A stretch of 32,000 nucleotides of DNA from Halogeometricum borinquense DSM 11551 (GTDB lineage: Archaea; Halobacteriota; Halobacteria; Halobacteriales; Haloferacaceae), in contig NC_014729.1 in assembly GCF_000172995.2 (NCBI RefSeq), forward strand, positions 750,001-782,000. The letters are read 5' to 3'. Under the pieces are notes generated by a model, which was not told where the DNA came from, made no database searches, and worked only from the letters and a program-made list of their open reading frames with translations. Both the position numbers and the translations under genes were made by a program. Within the stretch, counting starts at the first letter, position 1; every line of letters begins with the position of its first letter. Of this stretch, positions 6,084 through 25,784 are shown piece by piece.

Positions 6084-7694
6084 ATGCGTACACTTGCGTT
6101 CGACGGACGAATGGGTGCTAGTGGTGACATGATTCTCGCGTCGCTTCTCGCCGCCGGTGCCGACCGGGATGCACTGGCCCCTGTCGAGAACGCTCTCGAT
6201 GTTCACTACGATGTCTCGACGGTGGTCAAAAACGGGATCTCCGCTCGTCGCGTTCGTGTCCGCTTGGATGATACTGCCGGCGGCGGCGAGGGAGCGAACG
6301 ACGGACACGACGCTGACGGGGGCCACGAGCACGCGCACGAACACGGAGATCATAGCCACGGTCACGAACACCATCACCACGCACACGACCACTCCCACGG
6401 TGAAGGCCACACGCACGACCACTCTCACGGCGCAGGCCACACGCACGACCACTCTCACGGCGCAGGCCACACGCACGACCACTCTCACGGCGCAGGCCAC
6501 ACGCACGACCACTCTCACGGCGCAGGCCACACGCACGACCACTCTCACGGCGCAGGCCACACGCACGACCACTCTCACGGCGCAGGCCACACGCACGACC
6601 ACTCTCACGGCGCAGGCCACACGCACGACCACTCTCACGGGGACCACACCGAACACCCCCACGACGATGATCATGCACACGAGACACCCGCTGAGGGACA
6701 CGGTCCGCACCGCGCGTACGCAGAAGTAGTCGAGATAGTCGAGTCGATGGGCTTGCCGAACGGCGTCGAACGGGACGCGAAAGCTATTTTCCGGATTCTC
6801 GGCGAGGCGGAAGCAGCGGTCCACGGCACCGAGTTGGATGAGACGCATTTCCACGAAGTCGGCGCAGACGACGCCATCGCGGACATCGTCGGCGCGTGTC
6901 TCCTCCTCGCTGACCTCGACGTCGAACGCGTCGTCACGTCGCCTCTTTCGACCGGCGGCGGCGAGCAGTCGATGGCGCACGGTACGTATCCAGTTCCGAC
7001 GCCCGCTGTCGTCGAAATCGCCCAGCGCGCCGACTGGTCGTTGAAAGGTGGTCCCGTCGAGGCGGAACTGTTGACGCCGACGGGCGCGGCAATTCTCGCG
7101 CACGTCGCCGAAGGCGTCGAGTCGCTCCCGACGCTCGAAATCGATGCCTCGGGGTACGGCGCGGGCGGATACGACTTTCCGGACCACCCGAACGTCCTGC
7201 GAACGCTCGTCGGCGACGGTGCGGGCCGTCTCATCCGCGACGAGATAACCGTCTTGGAGACGAACCTCGATGATGCCGCGCCGGAACTCCTCGGCGGTCT
7301 CCAATCGACGTTGAAAGACGTGGGCGCGCGCGACGTGACTATCCTTCCGGCGACGATGAAGAAGTCCCGACCCGGACATCTCGTCAAAGTCATCGTCAAA
7401 CCGGAGGACGCCGAACGCGTCGCGAACCGCCTCGCTGTCGAGACGGGAACGCTCGGCATCCGAGAACACGGTGCCGGACACCGATGGACCGCATCTAGAC
7501 GATTCGAGACAGCCGAACTCGAAATCGAGGACGAGAGACACGAGGTGGCGGTGAAAGTCGCGTCCGATGCCGAGGGAGCGGTGTACGATTACAGCGCCGA
7601 GTTCGATGAGGCTCAGGCCGTCGCCGACGAAACGGGCCTGCCAATCCGTGAGGTCATGCGACGCGCGGAGAACATCGTCGCAGGCGACGACTGA
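6084..7694 (+). CDS. larC: LarC-family nickel insertion protein (DUF111) with an expanded His-rich insert
   Basis: The N-terminus MRTLAFDGRMGASGDMILASLLAAG matches the LarC/DUF111 start motif. The remainder (HFHEVGADDAIADIVG, LSTGGG, TPTGAAIL, TMKKSRPGH) also fits the family. The His-rich tract lies at the position where LarC proteins carry one. Confidence 0.85.
   Translation: MRTLAFDGRMGASGDMILASLLAAGADRDALAPVENALDVHYDVSTVVKNGISARRVRVRLDDTAGGGEGANDGHDADGGHEHAHEHGDHSHGHEHHHHAHDHSHGEGHTHDHSHGAGHTHDHSHGAGHTHDHSHGAGHTHDHSHGAGHTHDHSHGAGHTHDHSHGAGHTHDHSHGAGHTHDHSHGDHTEHPHDDDHAHETPAEGHGPHRAYAEVVEIVESMGLPNGVERDAKAIFRILGEAEAAVHGTELDETHFHEVGADDAIADIVGACLLLADLDVERVVTSPLSTGGGEQSMAHGTYPVPTPAVVEIAQRADWSLKGGPVEAELLTPTGAAILAHVAEGVESLPTLEIDASGYGAGGYDFPDHPNVLRTLVGDGAGRLIRDEITVLETNLDDAAPELLGGLQSTLKDVGARDVTILPATMKKSRPGHLVKVIVKPEDAERVANRLAVETGTLGIREHGAGHRWTASRRFETAELEIEDERHEVAVKVASDAEGAVYDYSAEFDEAQAVADETGLPIREVMRRAENIVAGDD
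6391..6650 (+). repeat. 30-bp in-frame tandem repeat inside larC
   Basis: The unit actctcacggcgcaggccacacgcacgacc occurs 7 times without a single mismatch (6421-6630). It is flanked by one diverged copy (6391-6420) and one partial copy. It encodes (HDHSHGAGHT)n. Confidence 0.97.
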
Positions 7695-16139: not shown

Positions 16140-16420
16140 TTCTGACTTTACTGCGGAGATAGGCCCCGTTATTTCGAGATAGGAACAGCTGCGGGCTCTC
16201 TTTTGTGTTGGTCGGAACACTATGACATCCTCCTCGCCGTTCACGGCGAGGTTTCCTCGCGCTGGGGTATCGTTTACCGACCCACGGAGGCAACTTGCGG
16301 GTTCGTATGCTCCTCGTTGGGACGGGGAGAGCGTGATGACTCCAACCATTCGTGGTTGTCCCACTTGAGGCATACAGGCCGTGCCATCGACCGTGTTACC
16401 GTCGTCTGCCGTTGACGAGA
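16140..16420 (-). ncRNA. Predicted TnpB guide RNA (omega/reRNA) scaffold region
   Basis: By analogy with characterised TnpB systems, the guide RNA overlaps the 3' end of tnpB and the IS right end. Downstream of the stop the minus strand has mutually exclusive hairpins GCGAGG-AAA-CCTCGC and CCTCGCCG-TGAA-CGGCGAGG. Boundaries are inferred, not seen. Confidence 0.3.
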
Positions 16421-17608
16421 CACAGAGTGTCTCGTTCGCCAATCAGAACTCAGAGAGTTCTGATGACGTCTCAAGAACGTCTCTGACGCCACGAGGTCAG
16501 CGTGCCCCTCGAAGCCACACGGACACGTCAGCGTATCTCTGTGGCGCGTCGTCTCCTCTGTCGAACCACAGTTGGGACACTCCTGACTCGTCCACGCCTC
16601 CGACCGAACCTCTACCGACATACCGTATTCCTTGGCGGTACACGCCACCCGGTTCACGAACGCCCTGAACGCCCAGAAATTGTGCGTTTTCGCGTTCGTC
16701 TCTACCGACCAGTGCGTTTCCAACACGTCAGTTAACGCCCCAACGTACACCGTCGAAACGCCTTCATCGTAGAGGCGTTCGATGAGGTCACGGGCGAGTG
16801 CGTCTTGGGCGTGGTCACGTCGCTTGGTACGTCGGTCGTACAGGCGTCGGATTCGGTGACTGCTGTATCGACCTTCCTCCAACAGTGATTGGAGTCGGGC
16901 GATTTCTCGTGTCGTCTCGCGGAACCTGTCGAACAGGTCACGTCCTTCGTACAATAGTTGTTGACCGGTTGTGGTTGTGCAGGCGACGAGGTTGTTCGCA
17001 CCAATATCCAGAGCGGCTTCTTCCGAAGCCAGTGGTTGTGCCAGTCGAGAATCATCGACGGTGACTGGCTGAAAGGCCCTGAACGATTGTGCTTGCTCGT
17101 CGTAGAACAACTCCAATCGACCCTGCTTCTCATACTCCGTCCAGTTCGGGTCGCCCCGAACTTCGAGCCGGAGGCGTTCGCGGTGTCCCAACCCGTACTC
17201 GTCTTTCAGGTCTTTGCCGACGAGGATTTCGAGCCGGGAGTATTCACCCCACTCGACCGAGTACGACGTGTTTCGGATGTACGTGCGGAGTTCTCGACCT
17301 TCGTCTGCGTTGCCCCAGTATCCGGGTTTTCCGTTGGCTTCGCCTTTCTTCCTAAGGCTGAAGAACGACTTCCACGCTTCGCGGTTCTTGCGCTCGATTT
17401 GCTGAACCGTGGACGCCCCGAGAACACCGCCGTAGCGACCACGATACTCGCTGATGTCCCACACGTCTCCGTCTGGGTCAGCATAGTGTTCGCGGCGCTC
17501 GTAGTTGATTTCGTTCCAGAGAGCGGCAGAAGCGTCCAACAGGCGTCGAAGCAACTCCTCGTCCTCGTCGGACAGAGGAACCACCTCGAACGTGTTGGCT
17601 CGCTTCAT
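16274..17608 (-). CDS. tnpB: TnpB (IS1341-type, RNA-guided nuclease family, OrfB)
   Basis: The 444-aa product has RuvC-I in [11 protein letters not shown], a zinc finger CPNCG...CPCG, and RuvC-III in [11 protein letters not shown]. The N-terminal [39 protein letters not shown] is typical OrfB_IS605. The RuvC-II glutamate is not obvious by eye ([11 protein letters not shown]). Confidence 0.9.
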
Positions 17609-17633
17609 CGACTACTGATTGCATCGGAACACA

Positions 17634-17640
17634 CATAAAG
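17634..17640. promoter_or_regulatory. Single A/T box (CATAAAG / CTTTATG) placed to serve both tnpB and the divergent RHH ORF
   Basis: This is the only A/T-rich element in the 53-nt gap. It lies 26-32 nt from the tnpB ATG (17608, minus strand) and 22-28 nt from the ATG at 17662 (plus strand). Confidence 0.4.
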
Positions 17641-17661
17641 ATGTGGTTTGTGTGCTACTAT

Positions 17662-17799
17662 ATGGTCGAAGTTCGCATCGAGTTCGATGACGACGAGCAG
17701 TACGAGCGACTGAAGGAACTGAAGAAACACCGTGGATTGACGTGGAAGGGGTTGCTCCTCGAAGGCGAGAAGAAAGTCAGGGAGGATACCCCGGAGTAA
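17662..17799 (+). CDS. Small ribbon-helix-helix (CopG/Arc-like) protein, 45 aa (52 aa if started at 17641)
   Basis: I translated it by hand: MVEVRIEFDDDEQYERLKELKKHRGLTWKGLLLEGEKKVREDTPE. The pattern is a beta-strand (VEVRIEF), helix 1, a G-x-T turn and helix 2, and the composition is acidic. It is too short for the supplied ORF track. Confidence 0.5.
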   Translation: MVEVRIEFDDDEQYERLKELKKHRGLTWKGLLLEGEKKVREDTPE

Positions 17800-17923
17800 G
17801 CGGCGAACGTGGGTTGTGCCGTAGAGTGTCGGATTCACGCCCGCCGTAAACGTCGGGACTCTCTCCTTGATTCAGGTAGCCGAGATATTGGCTGAGTTCG
17901 TGTCGAATGTGCTGGGCGTGCGA

Positions 17924-19179: not shown

Positions 19180-19229
19180 ACGAGTGCGAGAGACACGGAG
19201 GTCTCTCGCGGTGATGTGCTCGGTAGAAG

Positions 19230-19325
19230 TGGGTTGGGGCGGATTCGAACGCCGGCGAACTCCCTTCGGTCGTCCGCTGCTTCCCGCCTCGCTCCGCTCG
19301 GCGGGAACGCCGGCCTGCTCCGTGT
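19230..19325 (-). pseudogene. Duplicate of the 3' half of tRNA-Val(CAC), interrupted by a 58-bp insertion
   Basis: Segments 19230-19256 and 19305-19325 together reproduce the last 39 nt of the intact tRNA-Val, apart from one missing C. A 10-bp direct repeat GAACGCCGGC (19247-19256 and 19305-19314) flanks the insert. No 5' half is present. Confidence 0.75.
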
Positions 19326-19349
19326 CCTTCACGAGGATGGAAAAACGAG

Positions 19350-19424
19350 TGGGTTGGGGCGGATTCGAACCGCCGGCCTGCTCCGTGTGAAGGAGCCGTC
19401 ATAACCTGGCTAGACCACCAACCC
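19350..19424 (-). tRNA. tRNA-Val (anticodon CAC)
   Basis: I folded the 75-nt cloverleaf by hand. The acceptor is GGGUUGG/CCAACCC. The anticodon stem is GCUCC/GGAGC with loop UUCACAC. The T-arm is GGCGG-UUCGAAU-CCGCC. A T5 run follows the 3' end. Confidence 0.9.
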
Positions 19425-19453
19425 AGGCAAAAATTTCTTTCCTCGGGTGAGAC

Positions 19454-19459
19454 TTAAGC
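19454..19459 (-). promoter_or_regulatory. TATA-like box (CTTAAG) for tRNA-Val
   Basis: It lies about 30 nt upstream of tRNA position 1 on the minus strand. Confidence 0.4.
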
Positions 19460-19473
19460 GTTCTTCTTCGGTC

Positions 19474-19743
19474 TTACTCGGATGCGCCACCTCGGTACCG
19501 CTTGATCCGACCGCGAGCCTTCTTGATGGCCTTCTTTCCACCGCGTTCGGCACGCCGCGGCACATCGCGGAGTTCCGATTCTAACCGCTCGCGCCCGGTT
19601 GGTTCCGACTCTTCTTCGCGTTCACGCCCGAGTGCTGACCGGATTCGTCGTTCGACCGGCTTGGCCTCTTCTCGCAGTCCGTCCGCGAGGTGATTTCCCG
19701 CACGTCGGAGGTAGTACCACGCATCTTCGAAGTGTCGATTCAT
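19474..19743 (-). CDS. Small conserved hypothetical protein (89 aa), charged and helical
   Basis: MNRHFEDAWYYLRRAGNHLADGLREEAKPVERRIRSAL... has an A/T-rich TATA-like tract (19765-19775) about 27 nt upstream of the ATG at 19743. The first 17 codons of the track ORF look like a spurious hydrophobic extension. Confidence 0.55.
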   Translation of the reverse strand: MNRHFEDAWYYLRRAGNHLADGLREEAKPVERRIRSALGREREEESEPTGRERLESELRDVPRRAERGGKKAIKKARGRIKRYRGGASE

Positions 19744-19797
19744 ATCTGTTCTTACGCAGGCAACTAATAAAAGAATTATGTGGGTAATTGTCATGCT

Positions 19798-19854
19798 CTG
19801 TTTTAGGCCCTCCTAAAACAGAAGATTTTAGTAGTTGTTAGGCGTGCCTAAAAC
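19798..19854. promoter_or_regulatory. Cluster of three GTTTTAGG/CCTAAAAC octamers forming two palindromes
   Basis: A perfect 10-bp hairpin CTGTTTTAGG-CCCT-CCTAAAACAG lies at 19798-19821. The palindrome TTAGGC-GT-GCCTAA lies at 19838-19851. The octamer CCTAAAAC recurs 35 nt apart. Confidence 0.4.
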
Positions 19855-20139
19855 TGGTGCGACGTCGCTCGTGACGGCGTCCATCGAGCGTCTATCCCTC
19901 GTGGCCGACCGTGGGCATCATACACAGTCGGTCCACAACATCCCTGTTTGTCGAGTCAGCAAGGCAACTACCGTGCCCCCGGTGACCGGCTCCACCGTGT
20001 TACGGTCATCGGTTCCTTTCCCGACTAGCGATTACCAGTGGGGGACTACCGTCGCGTCTGTAAGTCGCTGTCGATCAACGACCTTTCCCCGTATGAGTAG
20101 CTGCGTCCATCGGTGCAGATGCACTGCAGTAACTCCTCG
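19855..20139. ncRNA. Candidate structured non-coding RNA or long 3' UTR (unclassified)
   Basis: This is about 285 nt with no credible ORF. The only long ORF is basic and starts at TTG. Nested helices are dense, for example CGCTCG...CGAGCG, GACCG...CGGTC, TCGG-TTCCTTTC-CCGA and CCCCCGGT...ACC-AGT-GGGGG. Confidence 0.25.
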
Positions 20140-20673
20140 TTAGTACGTCGGTGACTCCTCAGGGACGCCATCGCGTTGGTTCACCAGTCGCGCAAATACG
20201 AACAGCGCGTCCGAGAGTCGGTTGAGGTACTGAATCGCTTGCTCGTTCACTGACTGATCTGTCGCCAGCGCGACGGCGCGGCGCTCTGCCCGCCGCGACA
20301 CTGCGCGCGCGTGGTGAAGTTTCGCTCCCGAATCGCCGCCACCGGGGAGGATGAACGACTGGAGCGGTTCGAGTTCCTCCTCTACGTCGTCGATATACGA
20401 CTCTACCTCCTCGACGTGCGCTTCAGCGATGACCGGATCATCGTCTTCAGGGTCCGGATTTGCGAAATCCGCCTGCACGATGTGGAGATGGTTCTGGATA
20501 CGCTCTAGTTTCTCGTCTATATCGTCGTATCCCGTCGGTCGGACGCTCCCGACGAGCGCGTTCACCTCGTCTACGGTCCCGTAGGCTTCGATCCGAGGGC
20601 TCGTCTTCGACACCCGCGACATGTCCCGAAGGTCGGTCATCCCCTCGTCGCCGCGCCCGGTGTAAATTTTCAT
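20140..20673 (-). CDS. pduO: PduO-type ATP:cob(I)alamin adenosyltransferase
   Basis: MKIYTGRGDEGMTDL...RIEAYGTVDEVNALVG...FILPGG...LHHARAVSRRAERR are hallmark motifs of the family. The start overlaps the upstream grx stop (ATGA). Confidence 0.9.
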   Translation of the reverse strand: MKIYTGRGDEGMTDLRDMSRVSKTSPRIEAYGTVDEVNALVGSVRPTGYDDIDEKLERIQNHLHIVQADFANPDPEDDDPVIAEAHVEEVESYIDDVEEELEPLQSFILPGGGDSGAKLHHARAVSRRAERRAVALATDQSVNEQAIQYLNRLSDALFVFARLVNQRDGVPEESPTY

Positions 20674-20909
20674 GCGAGGGTCCTCTCGATGTACTGCACG
20701 ATATTGTCGGACTCGCCCATCGTGATTCCCCGTTCGTCGTCCACGAGAACGGGCACGCTACGCTGACCGCTCACGCGTTTCACTTCGTTGCGTTCGGAGT
20801 GAAGCGCCTCGACCCACTCTGTCTCGTACTCGACGCCGTGTTCTTCCAGTGCGTCGTGTACCTTCTCGCAGTACGGACATCCGTCCAGCGCGTACACCGT
20901 GATGCTCAT
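20670..20909 (-). CDS. Glutaredoxin-like protein (CPYC)
   Basis: MSITVYALDGCPYCEKV...SVPVLVDDE...GESDNI is a thioredoxin fold with a CPYC active site. I chose the ATG at 20909. Confidence 0.8.
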   Translation of the reverse strand: MSITVYALDGCPYCEKVHDALEEHGVEYETEWVEALHSERNEVKRVSGQRSVPVLVDDERGITMGESDNIVQYIERTLA

Positions 20910-20963: not shown

Positions 20964-23900
20964 CTACGACCGCCGCCACGCCAGTGTCACGACTACGAAC
21001 AGGCTCAGGATGGCCGCGAGCGGTCCAAATCCTGGAACGCCGGTTTCCGTTTCGGTCGGTGTCGCGGTTGGCGTCGCGGTCGGTGTCTGAGTTGCCGTCG
21101 GCGTCGGGCGCTCAGTCGGCGTCGGCTCGGTCACGCCAACGGTGCCTGCGGTTTGGTTCCCGACGCTGAGGTTGTACGTCCCGACTTCGTCGAACTGTAC
21201 GGTGAACCTCTCCGTCTCTGAGTCGCCAGCCCCGAGCGTCACGCGCCGCGTATCGGTCGTCGCATTGTCCACGGCGAGCGAGACGTATCCAGTCGCCGCT
21301 CGCGTCCCGTCGTTGGTCACTCCCGCTGAAACAGTGACTGTCTCTCCGGGTCGAATGCGCCGTTCACCGACGCTTGCGTTCGTCACCGCGACCCGGCCGC
21401 CGGACTCGCGGCCGACGGCGAACGTTGACAGTCCGGGCGTGTCGGCGTTGTAGACGTACGTCTCCTCTCGTTTCTCGACGAGGATTGCGTTCAATTCCGT
21501 CCACGTTCCGTCGTGATATCGGTAGAGAGCCACTTGATCCGGCGAAACGTTCCGCTCGTGCAGACGTTCCTCGTGTACGCCGAAGCGGAAGACCGCGTAG
21601 TCGATATCGCGGTCCGAGACGGAGTGGTCTACCTGCAAGTATCCGACCGTCTGCTCGTTGGGTGATGTCACGTTCGCGTCGATGGTAGCGTTCGGCGCGT
21701 CGTCGTGAACCGTAGCCTGTACCGAATACGTCTCGTTCTGTGACGCAATCGAGAGCGTGTCGAGGCTGACGTTCTTCGATTCGCTCGTTGTGTTCAGCGG
21801 AAGATCTACCAGTGACGACGGCTGTGCGGACTCCACGCGAACTGAAGATCCGTTTCGACCGGTCCGTTCGACGGAGACGTTCGCTCGCGGCGGTTCGGAG
21901 TCGTTGGCGTCGGTCTCGGATTCCGGGTCTGGTTCGATCACGACGATTTGTTCTTCGTCGCCACCGCCGCCTCCCCCACCGCCACCGCCGTTCGCGTCCG
22001 AACGTGATCCGTTCAGAGAGATCGTTGCCGATTGTCCGGACGCACCGTCGTTCCCGTTCGCGTCCGCGAGACGTGCCAGCGTCACCGTTACTGACCCATT
22101 CGATCCCACCGCGTGCGACGTCTCGTAGCTCGTCCCGCTCACCGAGAAGTCTGTCTCGTCGAGTGTCGCATTCGCCGACCCGGTCAGCGTGACGTTCACG
22201 TCGTTCAGCGTCTCCGAAGCGTCGAAGGCGATATCGACCGACGAGTCCGATCCCGCGGAGACGGAGAAATTCGAGACCGTCGGCGGGGTGTCGAGGGTGA
22301 GCGTTCCGGTCTGGGCTGACCGTTTGTTTCCAACGGTGTCCGTCGTCGTGACCGGGACCGACCGGTCGCCGTCGGCCGCAGTCGCGTCGAAGTCTACGGT
22401 GAGTGTCGCCGTGTAGGTCCCGTCGGAGTCGCCGTCAGCAATCGAGACCGCACTTCCGGAACCGAATGCACTCCCATCGACCGTCACCGACCCGATGCCT
22501 GCAGCGTCACTCACCGTCGCTGAGATATCTATCTGGTCGCCCGGCGCGACGACGCCGTCGCCGTCTGTCGCGTCAGTGAACGTCAGGCCGGTGACCGACG
22601 GCCCGGTCGTATCGAGCGTCAGCGACCCCGTCGTTCCGCTTCCGACCGTCCCCCGGTCGTCACTAGCTTGAATGGGTGCCGAGACGCTCCCGTCTGCGGA
22701 CGCGTTCGACTCGTCCACTGCGACCGTCGCGTTCCATGTGCCATCGTCATCACCGTCCGTCAACGTGACCGTTCCAGCTCCGATGGCCGAGAGGTCGGTC
22801 GTTACTGTCGCCACGCCGTTCGCGTCGGTCGCTGTCGCCTCCACAGTGACGTTCTCACCATCCGTGAGGACGCCGTCACCCGTCTCGTCCGTAAGCGTCG
22901 GACTCGATACGGTCGGACCAGTCGTGTCGAGCGTTAGCGATCCCGTCGTCCCGCTTCGGACGTTCCCCGCGCCGTCCGTCACATCGACGGCCACGCTGTA
23001 GTCGCCGTCGGGGTCCGCGTTCGCACCGTTTACGGTGACCGTCTTCGACCAATCGCCGCCGGTATCGGTGAGGGTGACGACGCCAGCACCGAACGCCGAG
23101 AGGTCGGCCGTCACCGACTGCACACCCGCAGTGCTATCCGTCGCTGTCGCGGACACGGTCACAGATTCGCCGTCAGCGACGATGCTGTCTCCGTCGGCGT
23201 CGTCTGTGACGCCCACTGAGGAGAGTGTTGGTTTCGCCGTGTCGAGGGTCAGCGTCTCGGTCGTAACGACGCTTGTCTGACCGGCCTCGTCGCTGACAGT
23301 AACGGACCCACCGTGCGAGCCGTCGGGATCCGCATTCGCGGCGTCAACGGAGACAGTCACATCCCACGTTCCGTCCGAGTCGCCGTCGGCCAAGGTGACG
23401 GTTCCGGCGCCGAACGCCGAGAGGTCGGCTTCGACGGTGCGAACCTCGCTTCCGGTTCCGTCGGGTGTGACGGAGACAGTGAGATCCTCGCCGCCCGCCA
23501 CGTAGCTATCAGCATCACTGTCGCTCAGTGAGAGCCCTGATGTTGATGGTGTGACAGTGTCGAGGGTGAGCGTTCCGACCGTCGTCTGATTTGTCTTCCC
23601 TTGACTGTCGGCGGCCTCGACAGAAACGGAGTGCTCTCCGTCCGCAACACCCGACGCGTCCACGACGAACGTACCGTTGTACACGTCCGAACTCCCGACT
23701 TGCGAGAGACTGACTGCACTGCCGCCGCCGAGTTCGGTTGCGTCCGCAGTGACAGTATCAACTGTCGTCGCGTCGGTCACGGTCAGTTCGACTGTCACCG
23801 TCTCTTCGTCCGCGACGACACCGTCACCGTCGGTGCCTGTGAGACTCCCGGCCGAAAGCGTCGGCGGGTTCACGTCCTGCGTCAACTCGTTCGTCGTCGC

Positions 23901-25784
23901 CGAGTTGGCGTTCCCGAGGTCGTCCGTCGCTTCGACGGTGAGACTGTAGTTGCCGTCGCCCGCGGCGTTGGTCCCGTTAACCGTGAACGACGTCTCGTAG
24001 GTGTCGCCGCCGACGTTCGAGAGCGTCTCGGTTCCGACGCCGAAATCTGATGCGTCCGTCGTCACTGCGGTGATTCCAGTCGTGTCCGTCACCGTCGCGG
24101 AGACAACGACTGTGTCGCCGTCGCGGACGACGCTCATGCCGCCGCTCCCGTTTCTGAGCGTCAGCGATGAGAGACTTGGACCGCTCGTATCAACGCTGAG
24201 CGTCCCTGTCTCTGTCGAGGCGGTGTTTCCCTCGTCGTCTGTCGCCGTCACCGAGGCGAGTTGGTCTCCCTCGGTCGGCGACTGACCGACCGCCGTCGTC
24301 AGGTTCCACGTGGACCCATCGGACGAGGTGAGTGAGACGGAACTCCCCAGATCGAACGCCGAGAGATCGGCCGTGACCGACTGCACACCGCTCGTGTCGT
24401 CGGACACTGTCGCTTCGACGGTTATCTCGTCTCCGTCGGTCACGTTCCCGTCGGCGTCTCCGTCAGTGAGTGAGAGAGGACTAATATCCGGCCCGGTCGT
24501 ATCCACAACGACTGTTTCGGATTCACTGCTTGCACCGTCTTTTCCGGTTCCGTCCGCGGCTTCATCGAGCGTGAACGTGTACGTCCCGTCGGTCGGCGCG
24601 TTGTACGTCGCCTCGTACGTGTACGGGGCCGACCCATCGGCCGTCGAGAACGCTGCCTCCGTAACTGTCGTCGAATCCGCTCCCGAGACGCTCACCGTGA
24701 TGTTCCCGAGCGTTTCGTCGCTGTCGAACGAGAGGCCGACCGACTGCCCCGAGGAGTTATCGACCGCAAACGATGTGATATTAGGATCCGTGTTCAGTGT
24801 CAGCGTCTCGACGGTCGTCTGATTCACGTTTCCGGCCGCGTCGCGTACGCGGACAGTTACCGGGTAGTCACCGTCGGTCGTCCCTCCTTCCGAGACGGTT
24901 ATCGTGGCGTTGTACACGCTTGATTCCGTTTCGTTCGTCAGCGATTCCGACGTACCTGCACCGAAATCCGAGAGGTCGGCCGTCACTGACTCTATCGCCG
25001 TCGTCGCGTCCGCCACATCTACCTCAACAGTCACTGTCTCGCCAGCATCGACGGTCCCGTCGTCGCCTGCTTCGGAGAGCGTCGTTGACGAGTACGTGGG
25101 CGCATTCGTGTCGAGACGAAGTGACGGCGAGTCGGTCCGATTGGTGTTACTCTGATTGTCGGCGGCGACGATGGTAACGTTCGTCTCCCCGTCAGCGGGA
25201 ACGCTTCCGCCGACGGTGAACGTCGCCGCGTAGGTGTCACCGTTCGTGAGAGAGAGCGAAACGGTTCCAGCACCGAAGTCAGACGCGTCGGCTTCGACAG
25301 ACTGCACGCTCGCTGTCGCGTCTACGACGTCGGCCCTGACGCGGACGGTGTCGTCCGAGGCGACGATTCCGTCTCCGTCCGAATCGTCCAGCAACTGCAC
25401 GTTCGTCACCGACGGTTCGGTGGTGTCTACGTACGCGCTATCGTTCAGTGAACTCTCTTTGACGAACTCGCCGGTGTAGTAGCCGTCACGACTCACGTTC
25501 GTCGTCGTCTCGTAGTGATACCCGCCGGAGATATTGGTTTCAGTGAACGTGTCGGCACCCAACACCTGATCGGAATCACCGTTTCGGTAGAGTAAAATAT
25601 CGAAGTCAGACAGTTGCTGTGTCGAGTCGAACGAGACGGTCAAGTTCTGCCCCTCAGGGTTCGAGATAGTGAAGTTTGATTGCTCCCCGCTGGCCGCCTC
25701 TGCGACTCCCGGACCGACTGCCGCCGCGGCCGCCAAAATCATGACTGCAACTGTGACGAGAGTAACGGAGACCCCTCGCGTCAC
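20964..25784 (-). CDS. Giant (1606 aa) repeat-built cell-surface glycoprotein/adhesin with PGF-pre-PGF, CARDB-like and PGF-CTERM domains
   Basis: It has a signal peptide (MTRGVSVTLVTVAVMILAAAAAVGPGVAEA). It contains nine modules of about 105 aa starting DTxxP and three modules of a second type. A Gly9 run follows. The PGF-pre-PGF-like block is VGYLQVDH...YRYHDGTWTEL...TPGLSTFAVG. The C-terminus has a TPT-rich linker and GVPGFGPLAAILSLFVVVTLAWRRS. NxS/T sequons are numerous. Confidence 0.9.
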   Translation of the reverse strand: MTRGVSVTLVTVAVMILAAAAAVGPGVAEAASGEQSNFTISNPEGQNLTVSFDSTQQLSDFDILLYRNGDSDQVLGADTFTETNISGGYHYETTTNVSRDGYYTGEFVKESSLNDSAYVDTTEPSVTNVQLLDDSDGDGIVASDDTVRVRADVVDATASVQSVEADASDFGAGTVSLSLTNGDTYAATFTVGGSVPADGETNVTIVAADNQSNTNRTDSPSLRLDTNAPTYSSTTLSEAGDDGTVDAGETVTVEVDVADATTAIESVTADLSDFGAGTSESLTNETESSVYNATITVSEGGTTDGDYPVTVRVRDAAGNVNQTTVETLTLNTDPNITSFAVDNSSGQSVGLSFDSDETLGNITVSVSGADSTTVTEAAFSTADGSAPYTYEATYNAPTDGTYTFTLDEAADGTGKDGASSESETVVVDTTGPDISPLSLTDGDADGNVTDGDEITVEATVSDDTSGVQSVTADLSAFDLGSSVSLTSSDGSTWNLTTAVGQSPTEGDQLASVTATDDEGNTASTETGTLSVDTSGPSLSSLTLRNGSGGMSVVRDGDTVVVSATVTDTTGITAVTTDASDFGVGTETLSNVGGDTYETSFTVNGTNAAGDGNYSLTVEATDDLGNANSATTNELTQDVNPPTLSAGSLTGTDGDGVVADEETVTVELTVTDATTVDTVTADATELGGGSAVSLSQVGSSDVYNGTFVVDASGVADGEHSVSVEAADSQGKTNQTTVGTLTLDTVTPSTSGLSLSDSDADSYVAGGEDLTVSVTPDGTGSEVRTVEADLSAFGAGTVTLADGDSDGTWDVTVSVDAANADPDGSHGGSVTVSDEAGQTSVVTTETLTLDTAKPTLSSVGVTDDADGDSIVADGESVTVSATATDSTAGVQSVTADLSAFGAGVVTLTDTGGDWSKTVTVNGANADPDGDYSVAVDVTDGAGNVRSGTTGSLTLDTTGPTVSSPTLTDETGDGVLTDGENVTVEATATDANGVATVTTDLSAIGAGTVTLTDGDDDGTWNATVAVDESNASADGSVSAPIQASDDRGTVGSGTTGSLTLDTTGPSVTGLTFTDATDGDGVVAPGDQIDISATVSDAAGIGSVTVDGSAFGSGSAVSIADGDSDGTYTATLTVDFDATAADGDRSVPVTTTDTVGNKRSAQTGTLTLDTPPTVSNFSVSAGSDSSVDIAFDASETLNDVNVTLTGSANATLDETDFSVSGTSYETSHAVGSNGSVTVTLARLADANGNDGASGQSATISLNGSRSDANGGGGGGGGGGDEEQIVVIEPDPESETDANDSEPPRANVSVERTGRNGSSVRVESAQPSSLVDLPLNTTSESKNVSLDTLSIASQNETYSVQATVHDDAPNATIDANVTSPNEQTVGYLQVDHSVSDRDIDYAVFRFGVHEERLHERNVSPDQVALYRYHDGTWTELNAILVEKREETYVYNADTPGLSTFAVGRESGGRVAVTNASVGERRIRPGETVTVSAGVTNDGTRAATGYVSLAVDNATTDTRRVTLGAGDSETERFTVQFDEVGTYNLSVGNQTAGTVGVTEPTPTERPTPTATQTPTATPTATPTETETGVPGFGPLAAILSLFVVVTLAWRRS
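22301..25427 (-). repeat. Array of diverged modules of about 315 bp (Ig-like repeats) within the giant surface protein gene
   Basis: The consensus DT(T/S)GP(S/T)xSxxxLTDxxGDGxVxxGExVTVxAxVxDxxxGVxSVTADLSAFGAGxVTL...GxxxTGxLTL recurs nine times. Coordinates were derived from amino-acid positions and are approximate. Confidence 0.8.

Follow-up and report, generated by a model that had tools for sequence, protein, structure and literature searches.

The question raised by this locus is what lies between two minus-strand genes of the haloarchaeon Halogeometricum borinquense DSM 11551, one encoding a DUF7553 protein and the other a PduO-type ATP:cob(I)alamin adenosyltransferase, within a 32,000-nt stretch of its genome (contig NC_014729.1, positions 750,001 to 782,000; hereafter the window, to which all coordinates refer). 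An earlier note on this DNA had suggested that the spacer holds either a novel small RNA (sRNA) or an unusually long 3' untranslated region (UTR) of the adenosyltransferase gene. We conclude that it probably contains an independently transcribed sRNA gene on the plus strand, opposite to both neighbours and with its own promoter and operators, and that this gene is the Halogeometricum ortholog of Hts5 (HVO_2394s3) of Haloferax volcanii. The plus-strand sRNA foreseen in the earlier note is therefore retained, but its novelty is not: the RNA is the ortholog of a known, uncharacterised sRNA without an Rfam family, and it is most probably not a 3' UTR.

Relation to the Hts5 RNA of Haloferax volcanii

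Species-representative genomes were scanned with the adenosyltransferase protein, which yielded 80 loci, and the spacer was compared by sensitive BLAST. Only the DUF7553-proximal half of the spacer recurs in relatives. H. limi matches at 79% identity over 200 nt and 14 Haloferax species at ~65% identity over 19827-19934; Halegenticoccus, Haloarchaeobius, Halorubellus and Halostella match in the palindrome region alone, which in these genera adjoins DUF7553 and not the adenosyltransferase gene. A unit of palindrome, TATA-like box and RNA is kept in 25 other species from at least seven genera of haloarchaea and also occurs in metagenomic DNA, with DUF7553 almost always lying immediately downstream. 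On the plus strand its order is palindromic site 2, a T-rich box, palindromic site 1, hairpin P2, motif M2, hairpin P1 with motif M1, and a pyrimidine/U-rich tract. An unbiased DNA-pattern scan of metagenomes returned 15 stretches, seven of which are clear copies, each then followed by DUF7553 at ~90-115 nt; one metagenomic variant, recovered twice (L090/L092), is without DUF7553. The parts of the predicted RNA in H. borinquense are as follows.

19854-19953, plus strand: Hts5/HVO_2394s3-like small RNA, ~100 nt, from covariance model, profile and BLAST matches and from its fold
19856-19885, plus strand: hairpin P2, variable, in the 5' part of the RNA
19888-19898, plus strand: motif M2, single-stranded, GCGUCUAUCCC (GCGUCUaUCCC; family form GCGUCUGUCCC), GCGUCU(G/A)UCCC across the family
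19901-19936, plus strand: hairpin P1, whose apical part carries M1
19909-19919, plus strand: motif M1, invariant CCGUGGGCAUC, within P1
19944-19950, plus strand: U-rich tail CUGUUUG, after P1

The sequences GATGCCCACGG, GGGAyAGACGC and TTTAGG-N4-CCTAA are invariant across 25 species. Within the species, 19854-19953 is identical in all H. borinquense strains, and about 10 of their 12 substitutions fall in 19954-20139 and none in 19854-19953; in H. limi the sequence is conserved to 19936 and then stops abruptly. Instead of the ~285 nt of structured RNA proposed earlier, the conserved RNA is ~100 nt long (19854 to ~19950).

The gene order grx-pduO-spacer-DUF7553 is common to H. borinquense and to H. 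volcanii-type loci, the full Haloferax order being znuA1 (HVO_2397), grx4 (HVO_2396), adenosyltransferase (HVO_2395), spacer and HVO_2394. In H. volcanii, the highly expressed sRNA Hts5 maps between HVO_2394 and HVO_2395, gives northern bands of ~110 nt (major) and 150 nt, and yielded 3,074 reads from exponential-phase cells grown under standard conditions and none at elevated temperature; it was chosen for study because its flanking genes are oriented differently, and it was the sole undeletable gene among the four sRNA genes tried (Heyer et al. 2012, PMC3495736). Moreover, a 3' end with a mean coverage of 7,832 is reported at chromosome position 2,264,689 (plus strand), 64 nt past 'HVO_2394s3.mature_transcript' and antisense to HVO_2395 (2,264,658-2,265,191) (Berkemer et al. 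2020, PMC7237163, Supplementary Table 1). At the H. volcanii-type locus, a Haloferax covariance model matches 107 nt on the strand carrying this mapped 3' end, beginning just after site 1 and ending 45 nt before the adenosyltransferase stop codon. In our own mapping the annotated HVO_2394s3 mature end falls within ~10 nt of the end of the model, which would place the mature 3' end at about 2,264,616-2,264,625 and the TSS some 110-118 nt before it on the plus strand; the long form, by its mapped 3' end, extends 31 nt into the adenosyltransferase gene. The opposite-strand transcript in H. volcanii, together with the fact that the element accompanies DUF7553 in other genera, speaks against a long 3' UTR of the adenosyltransferase gene.

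The same Haloferax covariance model, run with filters off over 19400-20700 (1.3 kb), gives its best full-length match at 19854-19953 on the plus strand (11.2 bits, E=0.023). An nhmmer profile built from 30 non-Halogeometricum loci, operator included, matches 19807-19921 on the plus strand (E=5e-17), and BLAST of the spacer against the Haloferax loci gives E=1e-5 to 1e-3. The H. borinquense element thus resembles Hts5 in lying in the same spacer, between DUF7553 (HVO_2394) and the PduO-type adenosyltransferase (HVO_2395), probably on the same strand relative to its neighbours (as sequence signals suggest here), in size class (a 107-nt model match against a 110-nt northern band), and in sharing the motifs CCGUGGGCA and GCGUCUG.CCC, the site 1 palindrome and the TATA box. 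It differs in the sequence of P2, in the pairing register at the P1 apex, and in having a second copy of the operator, which Haloferax does not have. A further ~165 nt also separate the sRNA from the convergent gene, and any long form would therefore stop short of the adenosyltransferase 3' end, which the long form overlaps in H. volcanii. Expression as a discrete RNA of ~110 nt has been shown in H. volcanii; the RNA of H. borinquense is a prediction.

As a separate observation, at the H. volcanii-type locus L107 a long GC-rich hairpin (GAGCGACCGCGCCGACACCGG / CCGGTGCGGCGGCCGCTC, 2745-2790) separates the sRNA from the stop codon of the convergent adenosyltransferase gene; this hairpin is likely a bidirectional terminator.

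Structure of the RNA and its conserved motifs

The two-hairpin structure pairs 95.8% of cells in 13 Haloferax sequences, in an alignment that had been fitted to the model, against 25-49% in slid controls, and double changes occur at 12 of its 28 pairs. In Haloarchaeobius a closing stem of 8-11 bp (L012, L013, L027, L049) joins both ends of the RNA and covaries between GGUCGG/CCGACC and GGCCGG/CCGGCC, which fixes the RNA ends. The sRNA family is structurally plastic, in that the inserted hairpins differ between genera, and in Halorarius (L087, L089) the M2 motif, GUCUGUCCC, sits after M1 in the loop of a 3'-terminal hairpin that is followed by UUUU. Although the motifs are rearranged, even to the point of a permuted order, M1 and M2 both stay conserved and unpaired, which suggests that they are recognition elements. 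The insertions and the permuted motif order prevented a clean cross-genus seed alignment, and RNAalifold on MAFFT alignments gave no consensus fold on either strand because P2 cannot be aligned by sequence.

Probable promoter and operator-like palindromes

The control region of the sRNA gene and the promoter of DUF7553 comprise the following features.

19826-19831, plus strand: TATA-like box of the sRNA promoter, TTTTAG, a conserved T-rich hexamer that fits TTWT
19798-19821, both strands: site 2, inverted repeat CTGTTTTAGG-CCCT-CCTAAAACAG, a perfect palindrome 5' of the sRNA TATA box
19834-19854, both strands: site 1, inverted repeat GTTGTTAGG-CGTG-CCTAAAAC, between the TATA box and the transcription start site (TSS)
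19765-19773, minus strand: DUF7553 TATA box, reading CTTTTATTA on this strand and starting 29 nt before the ATG

The octamer CCTAAAAC (reverse complement GTTTTAGG) occurs three times in the 32 kb, always in the spacer, where 0.14 copies are expected and 0 of 100 shuffles reached three. Its copies, at 19800-19807 (minus strand, GTTTTAGG on the plus strand), 19812-19819 and 19847-19854, are the half-sites of two inverted repeats of the form TTTTAGG-N4-CCTAAAA, with centres at 19809.5 and 19844.5, 35 bp apart and roughly symmetric about the TATA box; the core palindrome of site 1 is TTAGGC-GT-GCCTAA(AAC) at 19838-19854. The three octamers, the 10-bp hairpin, the TTTTAG tract and the second palindrome described in the earlier note are thus all in place, and its suggestion of a TATA box at about 19825-19831, a TSS near 19855 and palindromes acting as an operator fits both the comparative data and the H. 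volcanii literature. A T-rich hexamer (TTTAGT, TTTTGT, TTTTCT or TTTATG) stands ~28-30 nt before the first helix of the RNA in all genera, which places the TSS at ~19854-19857. The haloarchaeal TATA consensus is TTWT, and leaderless mRNAs predominate in these organisms (PMC4983044).

In site 1 the half-sites TTAGG/CCTAA are invariant in 25+ species and the central four nucleotides vary, and the site abuts the RNA start in every case. Site 2 lies exactly 35 nt from site 1 in 12 of the 12 two-site species (six genera). The consensus is GTTTTAGG-N4-CC(A/G)AAA(C/T)C for site 2, which is often an imperfect palindrome across genera (TTTCGG...CCTAAA), and TTAGG-N4-CCTAAAAC for site 1. Upstream of DUF7553 the palindrome and the RNA core occur together in 39 loci, neither occurs in 16 and one alone in none, and therefore the palindrome belongs to the RNA gene and not to DUF7553. 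Conserved half-sites, a free centre and a fixed position relative to the core promoter are what is expected of a transcription-factor operator, and the palindromes are most likely DNA operators through which a dimeric transcription factor would gate sRNA synthesis.

In archaea, repressors such as MDR1, LrpA and Phr have operators that overlap the TSS immediately 3' of the TATA box, and the bound repressor blocks polymerase recruitment. The arrangement here is alike, with an inverted repeat of variable centre between TATA box and TSS and a second, upstream site that brackets the TATA box. It differs in that TTTTAGG-N4-CCTAAAA was matched to no described regulon, and binding at this locus is inferred only.

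The palindromes could also be read as RNA or DNA hairpins, serving as terminators, possibly bidirectional, or as 5' structures of transcripts. A consensus scan does flag 19797-19822, in which the hairpin of site 2 is lengthened to 11 bp, together with AGATTTTAGT, as terminator-like on the plus strand, and the 10-11 bp hairpin is perfect; the same scan, however, gave one site where 0.9 are expected in shuffles, and upstream there is no plus-strand gene to terminate. Moreover, the arms are invariant rather than covarying, the centre is free, and site 2, often imperfect, would mispair as RNA, for which reasons we read the palindromes as protein-recognised DNA. The fixed 35-bp spacing around the TATA-like box also fits a role at the DNA level, and we regard the hairpin explanation as unlikely.

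Two observations concern palindromes elsewhere. Haloferacaceae archaeon 50 has a lone perfect ATTTTAGG-CTAG-CCTAAAAT site (L025:2369) directly behind the end of a gene and away from any sRNA core, a hint that other regulon members may bear the palindrome. Three Haloferax loci (L023:3613, L040:2479, L068:3681) carry another palindrome, TTTAGAC-N3-GTCTAA, ~320 nt before the start of the adenosyltransferase gene; it falls within or close to the divergent promoter region of znuA1 and grx4 and may be a metal-regulator site.

Since the element stands directly upstream of DUF7553 wherever it is found, except in the L090/L092 variant, it might be supposed to be a regulatory leader acting in cis on the DUF7553 mRNA, as a riboswitch or attenuator for instance. 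DUF7553, however, is preceded by a separate TATA box 29 nt from its ATG, which implies a leaderless mRNA; the promoter box, (CACAA)nnnTT(A/T)TAT, keeps its position in all genera whether the sRNA is present or not, 16 species without the element included. The RNA of H. volcanii is on the other strand, and there is no riboswitch match in Rfam, so that a leader function appears extremely improbable. Because DUF7553 has a TATA box of its own, the 110 bp between the two start sites form a divergent control region.

Strand of the transcript

The plus-strand orientation is favoured by four sequence signals, namely the conserved TATA box, the U-rich tail after P1, the excess of G.U over A.C, and the model match. 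In Haloferax, G.U and A.C cells number 26 and 7 in this orientation, and the changes in P2 between H. borinquense and H. limi (A-U<->G.U, U.G<->C-G) also fit the plus strand. A symmetric folding count of G.U and A.C was too noisy for strand assignment.

Several observations weigh against a plus-strand Hts5 ortholog under operator control. The RNA body alone is the top nhmmer match in the window, at E=0.085; as an indication of homology to the Haloferax locus it is weak, and the case lies mostly with the operator and synteny. The covariance models built from Haloferax alone (R1, R2) miss other genera at default filters. The 100-nt RNA has a folding z-score of -1.15, and across genera the mean z is about equal on both strands (-1.18 versus -1.36). 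Beside M1, a position of P1 is U.G on the minus strand and C.A on the plus strand in three genera, and on the minus strand P2 followed by GTTTT resembles a terminator. That Hts5 is the conserved element is inferred from the shared 259-nt spacer, strand and size and not from the sequence of Hts5 itself, and the plus-strand RNA of H. borinquense is a prediction. As for the operators, Haloferax carries site 1 without site 2, and the cognate regulator would be hypothetical. Complements of M1 and M2 were not found in the window, and in the Haloarcula 16S-23S-5S operon there was none with two or fewer mismatches above chance.

Part of this evidence would be explained if the conserved element belonged to the minus strand, either as a structured 3' UTR or terminator belonging to the operon upstream or as an sRNA co-oriented with DUF7553, with P2 and GUUUU forming an intrinsic-type terminator and the palindromes lying just downstream. 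P2 is followed directly by (G)TTTT in every genus, the U.G pair recurs beside the invariant ACGG, and that strand often has the lower raw folding energy. However, the minus strand is G-rich, and the advantage in raw minimum free energy is erased by the shuffling controls that give the z-scores above. The T-run is part of the palindrome and for this reason reads TTTT on both strands. In addition, no conserved promoter lies upstream on the minus strand, and the upstream gene varies between genera. The H. volcanii sRNA is opposite to its neighbours, the high-coverage 3' end being on that opposite strand, and the G.U excess belongs to the plus orientation. We thus consider a minus-strand element distinctly unlikely and retain the plus-strand sRNA gene.

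The spacer and its neighbours

The genes on either side of the sRNA are the following.

19474-19743, minus strand: DUF7553 gene, 89 aa (PF24430, E=8.7e-14, residues 18-102 of the long open reading frame matched)
20140-20673, minus strand: PduO-type ATP:cob(I)alamin adenosyltransferase gene (PF01923, E=9e-58), the HVO_2395 ortholog, convergent with the sRNA

The DUF7553 gene, an ortholog of HVO_2394 (D4GWP1), starts at the ATG at 19743 and not at 19794; its homologues all begin MN(K/R)HF, and 89 aa are called in seven assemblies. The spacer therefore runs from 19744 to 20139. The earlier note had given about 340 nt of non-coding DNA from 19795, of which the non-coding character is upheld and the length is not, since the true spacer measures 396 nt. 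Its view that there is no believable open reading frame (ORF) is borne out: zero genes are called in the spacer across the seven assemblies, and AUG is absent from the sRNA sequence. The sole long ORF (19835-20143, plus strand, 102 aa, TTG start) is strongly basic, rich in S, T and R and unlike haloarchaeal proteins; as a protein it is ruled out by the lack of a Pfam match, its atypical composition and the absence of a call by gene callers.

An Rfam 15 scan at the gathering threshold reported only the tRNA at 19350-19424 (tRNA-Val), and in the spacer none of signal recognition particle (SRP) RNA, RNase P RNA, cobalamin riboswitch or HEARO/omega RNA reached that threshold. In a permissive scan of 19300-20300 the best match other than tRNA was mir-253 (16 bits, E=4.5). 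Neither mode gave the confident match to a known family that, according to the earlier note, would refute its candidate. The whole spacer has folding z-scores of -2.9 (plus strand) and -3.8 (minus strand).

Distal segment and mobile elements

Between the sRNA and the adenosyltransferase gene, the remainder of the spacer comprises these features.

19954-20139, both strands: non-conserved filler of ~190 nt, between the sRNA and the convergent adenosyltransferase gene
19979-20022, plus strand: hairpin CCGGTGACCG...CGGTCATCGG (19979-20012, inverted repeat I1, 10 nt, 90% complementary) followed by TTCCTTTCCC

The segment 19954-20139 is lineage-specific filler with terminator-type hairpins. It is missing from H. 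limi, whose spacer is 240 nt long, and has folding z-scores of about -2 on either strand. The direct repeat that the earlier note saw next to complementary C5 and G5 runs is present (ACTACCGT at 19967-19974 and 20045-20052, beside CCCCC and GGGGG) and, lying in a segment that H. limi lacks, is not part of the conserved RNA. The hairpin at 19979-20022 is a possible terminator of a longer, ~165-nt form of the sRNA that would end at ~20020, a form proposed because H. volcanii has a 150-nt band and a 3' end 64 nt past the mature sRNA.

It is also conceivable that the region, in whole or in part, is the remnant of a mobile element, either a miniature inverted-repeat transposable element (MITE) or an insertion sequence (IS) end, connected with the IS1341/TnpB element at a distance of 2 kb or with an integration event at the adjacent tRNA-Val gene. 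The TnpB gene at 16274-17608 is present in this strain and absent from another, pieces of the tRNA 3' end are duplicated at 19228-19250 and 19308-19325, and the distal ACTACCGT...ACTACCGT flanks CCCCC...GGGGG in the manner of a target duplication around inverted ends. Against this, the conserved half of the spacer is single-copy and syntenic in 7+ genera, searches of the window, 110 loci and the plasmid and phage collections gave no second copy, and Rfam gave no HEARO/omega-RNA match. For the distal 70-nt candidate in particular, a single 8-mer repeat within ~200 nt is near chance (an estimated ~0.4 expected), and these collections contained neither a second copy nor an empty site; nor did the other loci or the plasmid or phage collections contain sequence similar to the distal segment. 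A mobile origin of the region is thus very unlikely, and the conserved half is better explained as the sRNA gene, while a small insertion with a target-site duplication at the ACTACCGT repeats around CCCCC...GGGGG is possible.

Four further features of the window were observed. The IS1341-type element (16222-17875; TnpB ORF 16274-17608, minus strand) encodes a TnpB with OrfB_IS605 and Cas12f1-like TNB domains. It occurs in this strain and in L003 and is absent from strain L001, and is therefore a recent insertion polymorphism; the Rfam scan reported no omega/HEARO RNA for it. Just downstream of tRNA-Val(CAC) (19350-19424) are exact copies of two pieces of its 3' half, of 23 nt (19228-19250) and 18 nt (19308-19325), and the strains differ at precisely this place, L001 being without 19257-19347; these duplications look like scars of integration and excision at a tRNA att site. 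Within the ORF at 6084-7694 (plus strand), a LarC-type nickel-insertion protein gene (PF01969), 6377-6640 consists of 8.8 near-perfect tandem 30-nt units that would encode a His-rich decapeptide repeat and may represent a metal-binding insertion. Finally, 20964-25784 (minus strand) encodes a 1,606-aa protein with many Ig-like repeats (Big_13, DUF4625); the protein varies in length between strains from 1,591 to 1,606 aa, and the DNA repeats inside its gene have a period of ~310-630 nt.

Possible mechanism and function

It seems that transcription of the sRNA would start near 19855 from the TATA-like box at 19826-19831. A dimeric factor would bind the two sites around this box and gate sRNA synthesis, and at site 1 it would cover positions -20 to -1, blocking the recruitment of RNA polymerase as archaeal repressors do. 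The strong condition dependence of Hts5 is consistent with such operator control. Our best guess is that the ~100-nt RNA would act in trans, the unpaired motifs M1 and M2 binding a conserved partner that may be protein or RNA.

In these respects it would resemble the haloarchaeal sRNAs sRNA132, s479 and SHOxi, which are independently transcribed RNAs of ~100-150 nt with regulated expression, and which are believed to work in trans by way of unpaired seed regions. However, most of the H. volcanii sRNAs in Table 5 of PMC3956466, including sRNA132 and s479, are found in no other haloarchaeal genome, whereas the H. borinquense RNA is kept in at least seven genera, with invariant motifs of 9-11 nt and a conserved operator.

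Some specific roles were considered and rejected. An H/ACA or C/D guide RNA is excluded by the lack of a pseudouridylation pocket, ACA box, K-turn and C/D boxes, and the H. volcanii H/ACA RNA sR-h45 belongs to another locus (HVO_2651s). An interaction by base pairing between M2 and the GGACAGAT box ahead of the DUF7553 start codon was dismissed, as species that lack the sRNA have this box too and its position is 5' of a leaderless start. DUF7553 itself shows only weak similarities to helical-bundle or apolipoprotein-like (amphipathic-helix) proteins (E >= 0.05) and was discarded as a DNA-binding regulator. The adjacency of the sRNA and DUF7553 may be functional or merely conserved gene order.

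Significance

Hts5 is among the few archaeal sRNAs reported to be undeletable, and it has no Rfam family. The locus described here and its relatives provide a definition of the family over at least seven genera and probable transcript boundaries. The two invariant motifs are obvious targets for mutagenesis, and the operator TTTTAGG-N4-CCTAAAA is usable as bait for the regulator; the function and essentiality of Hts5 are thereby open to experiment. With regard to annotation, the sRNA unit accounts for an otherwise empty 400-nt spacer. We put forward, tentatively and as a doubtful proposition, that the Hts5-like RNA with its palindromic operator is a Halobacteria-wide and maybe essential housekeeping RNA whose M1 and M2 dock a conserved partner. 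On this view the RNA could also be functionally coupled to DUF7553, a small charged helical protein whose gene it nearly always faces, and the two might form an RNA-protein module that answers to a single regulator.

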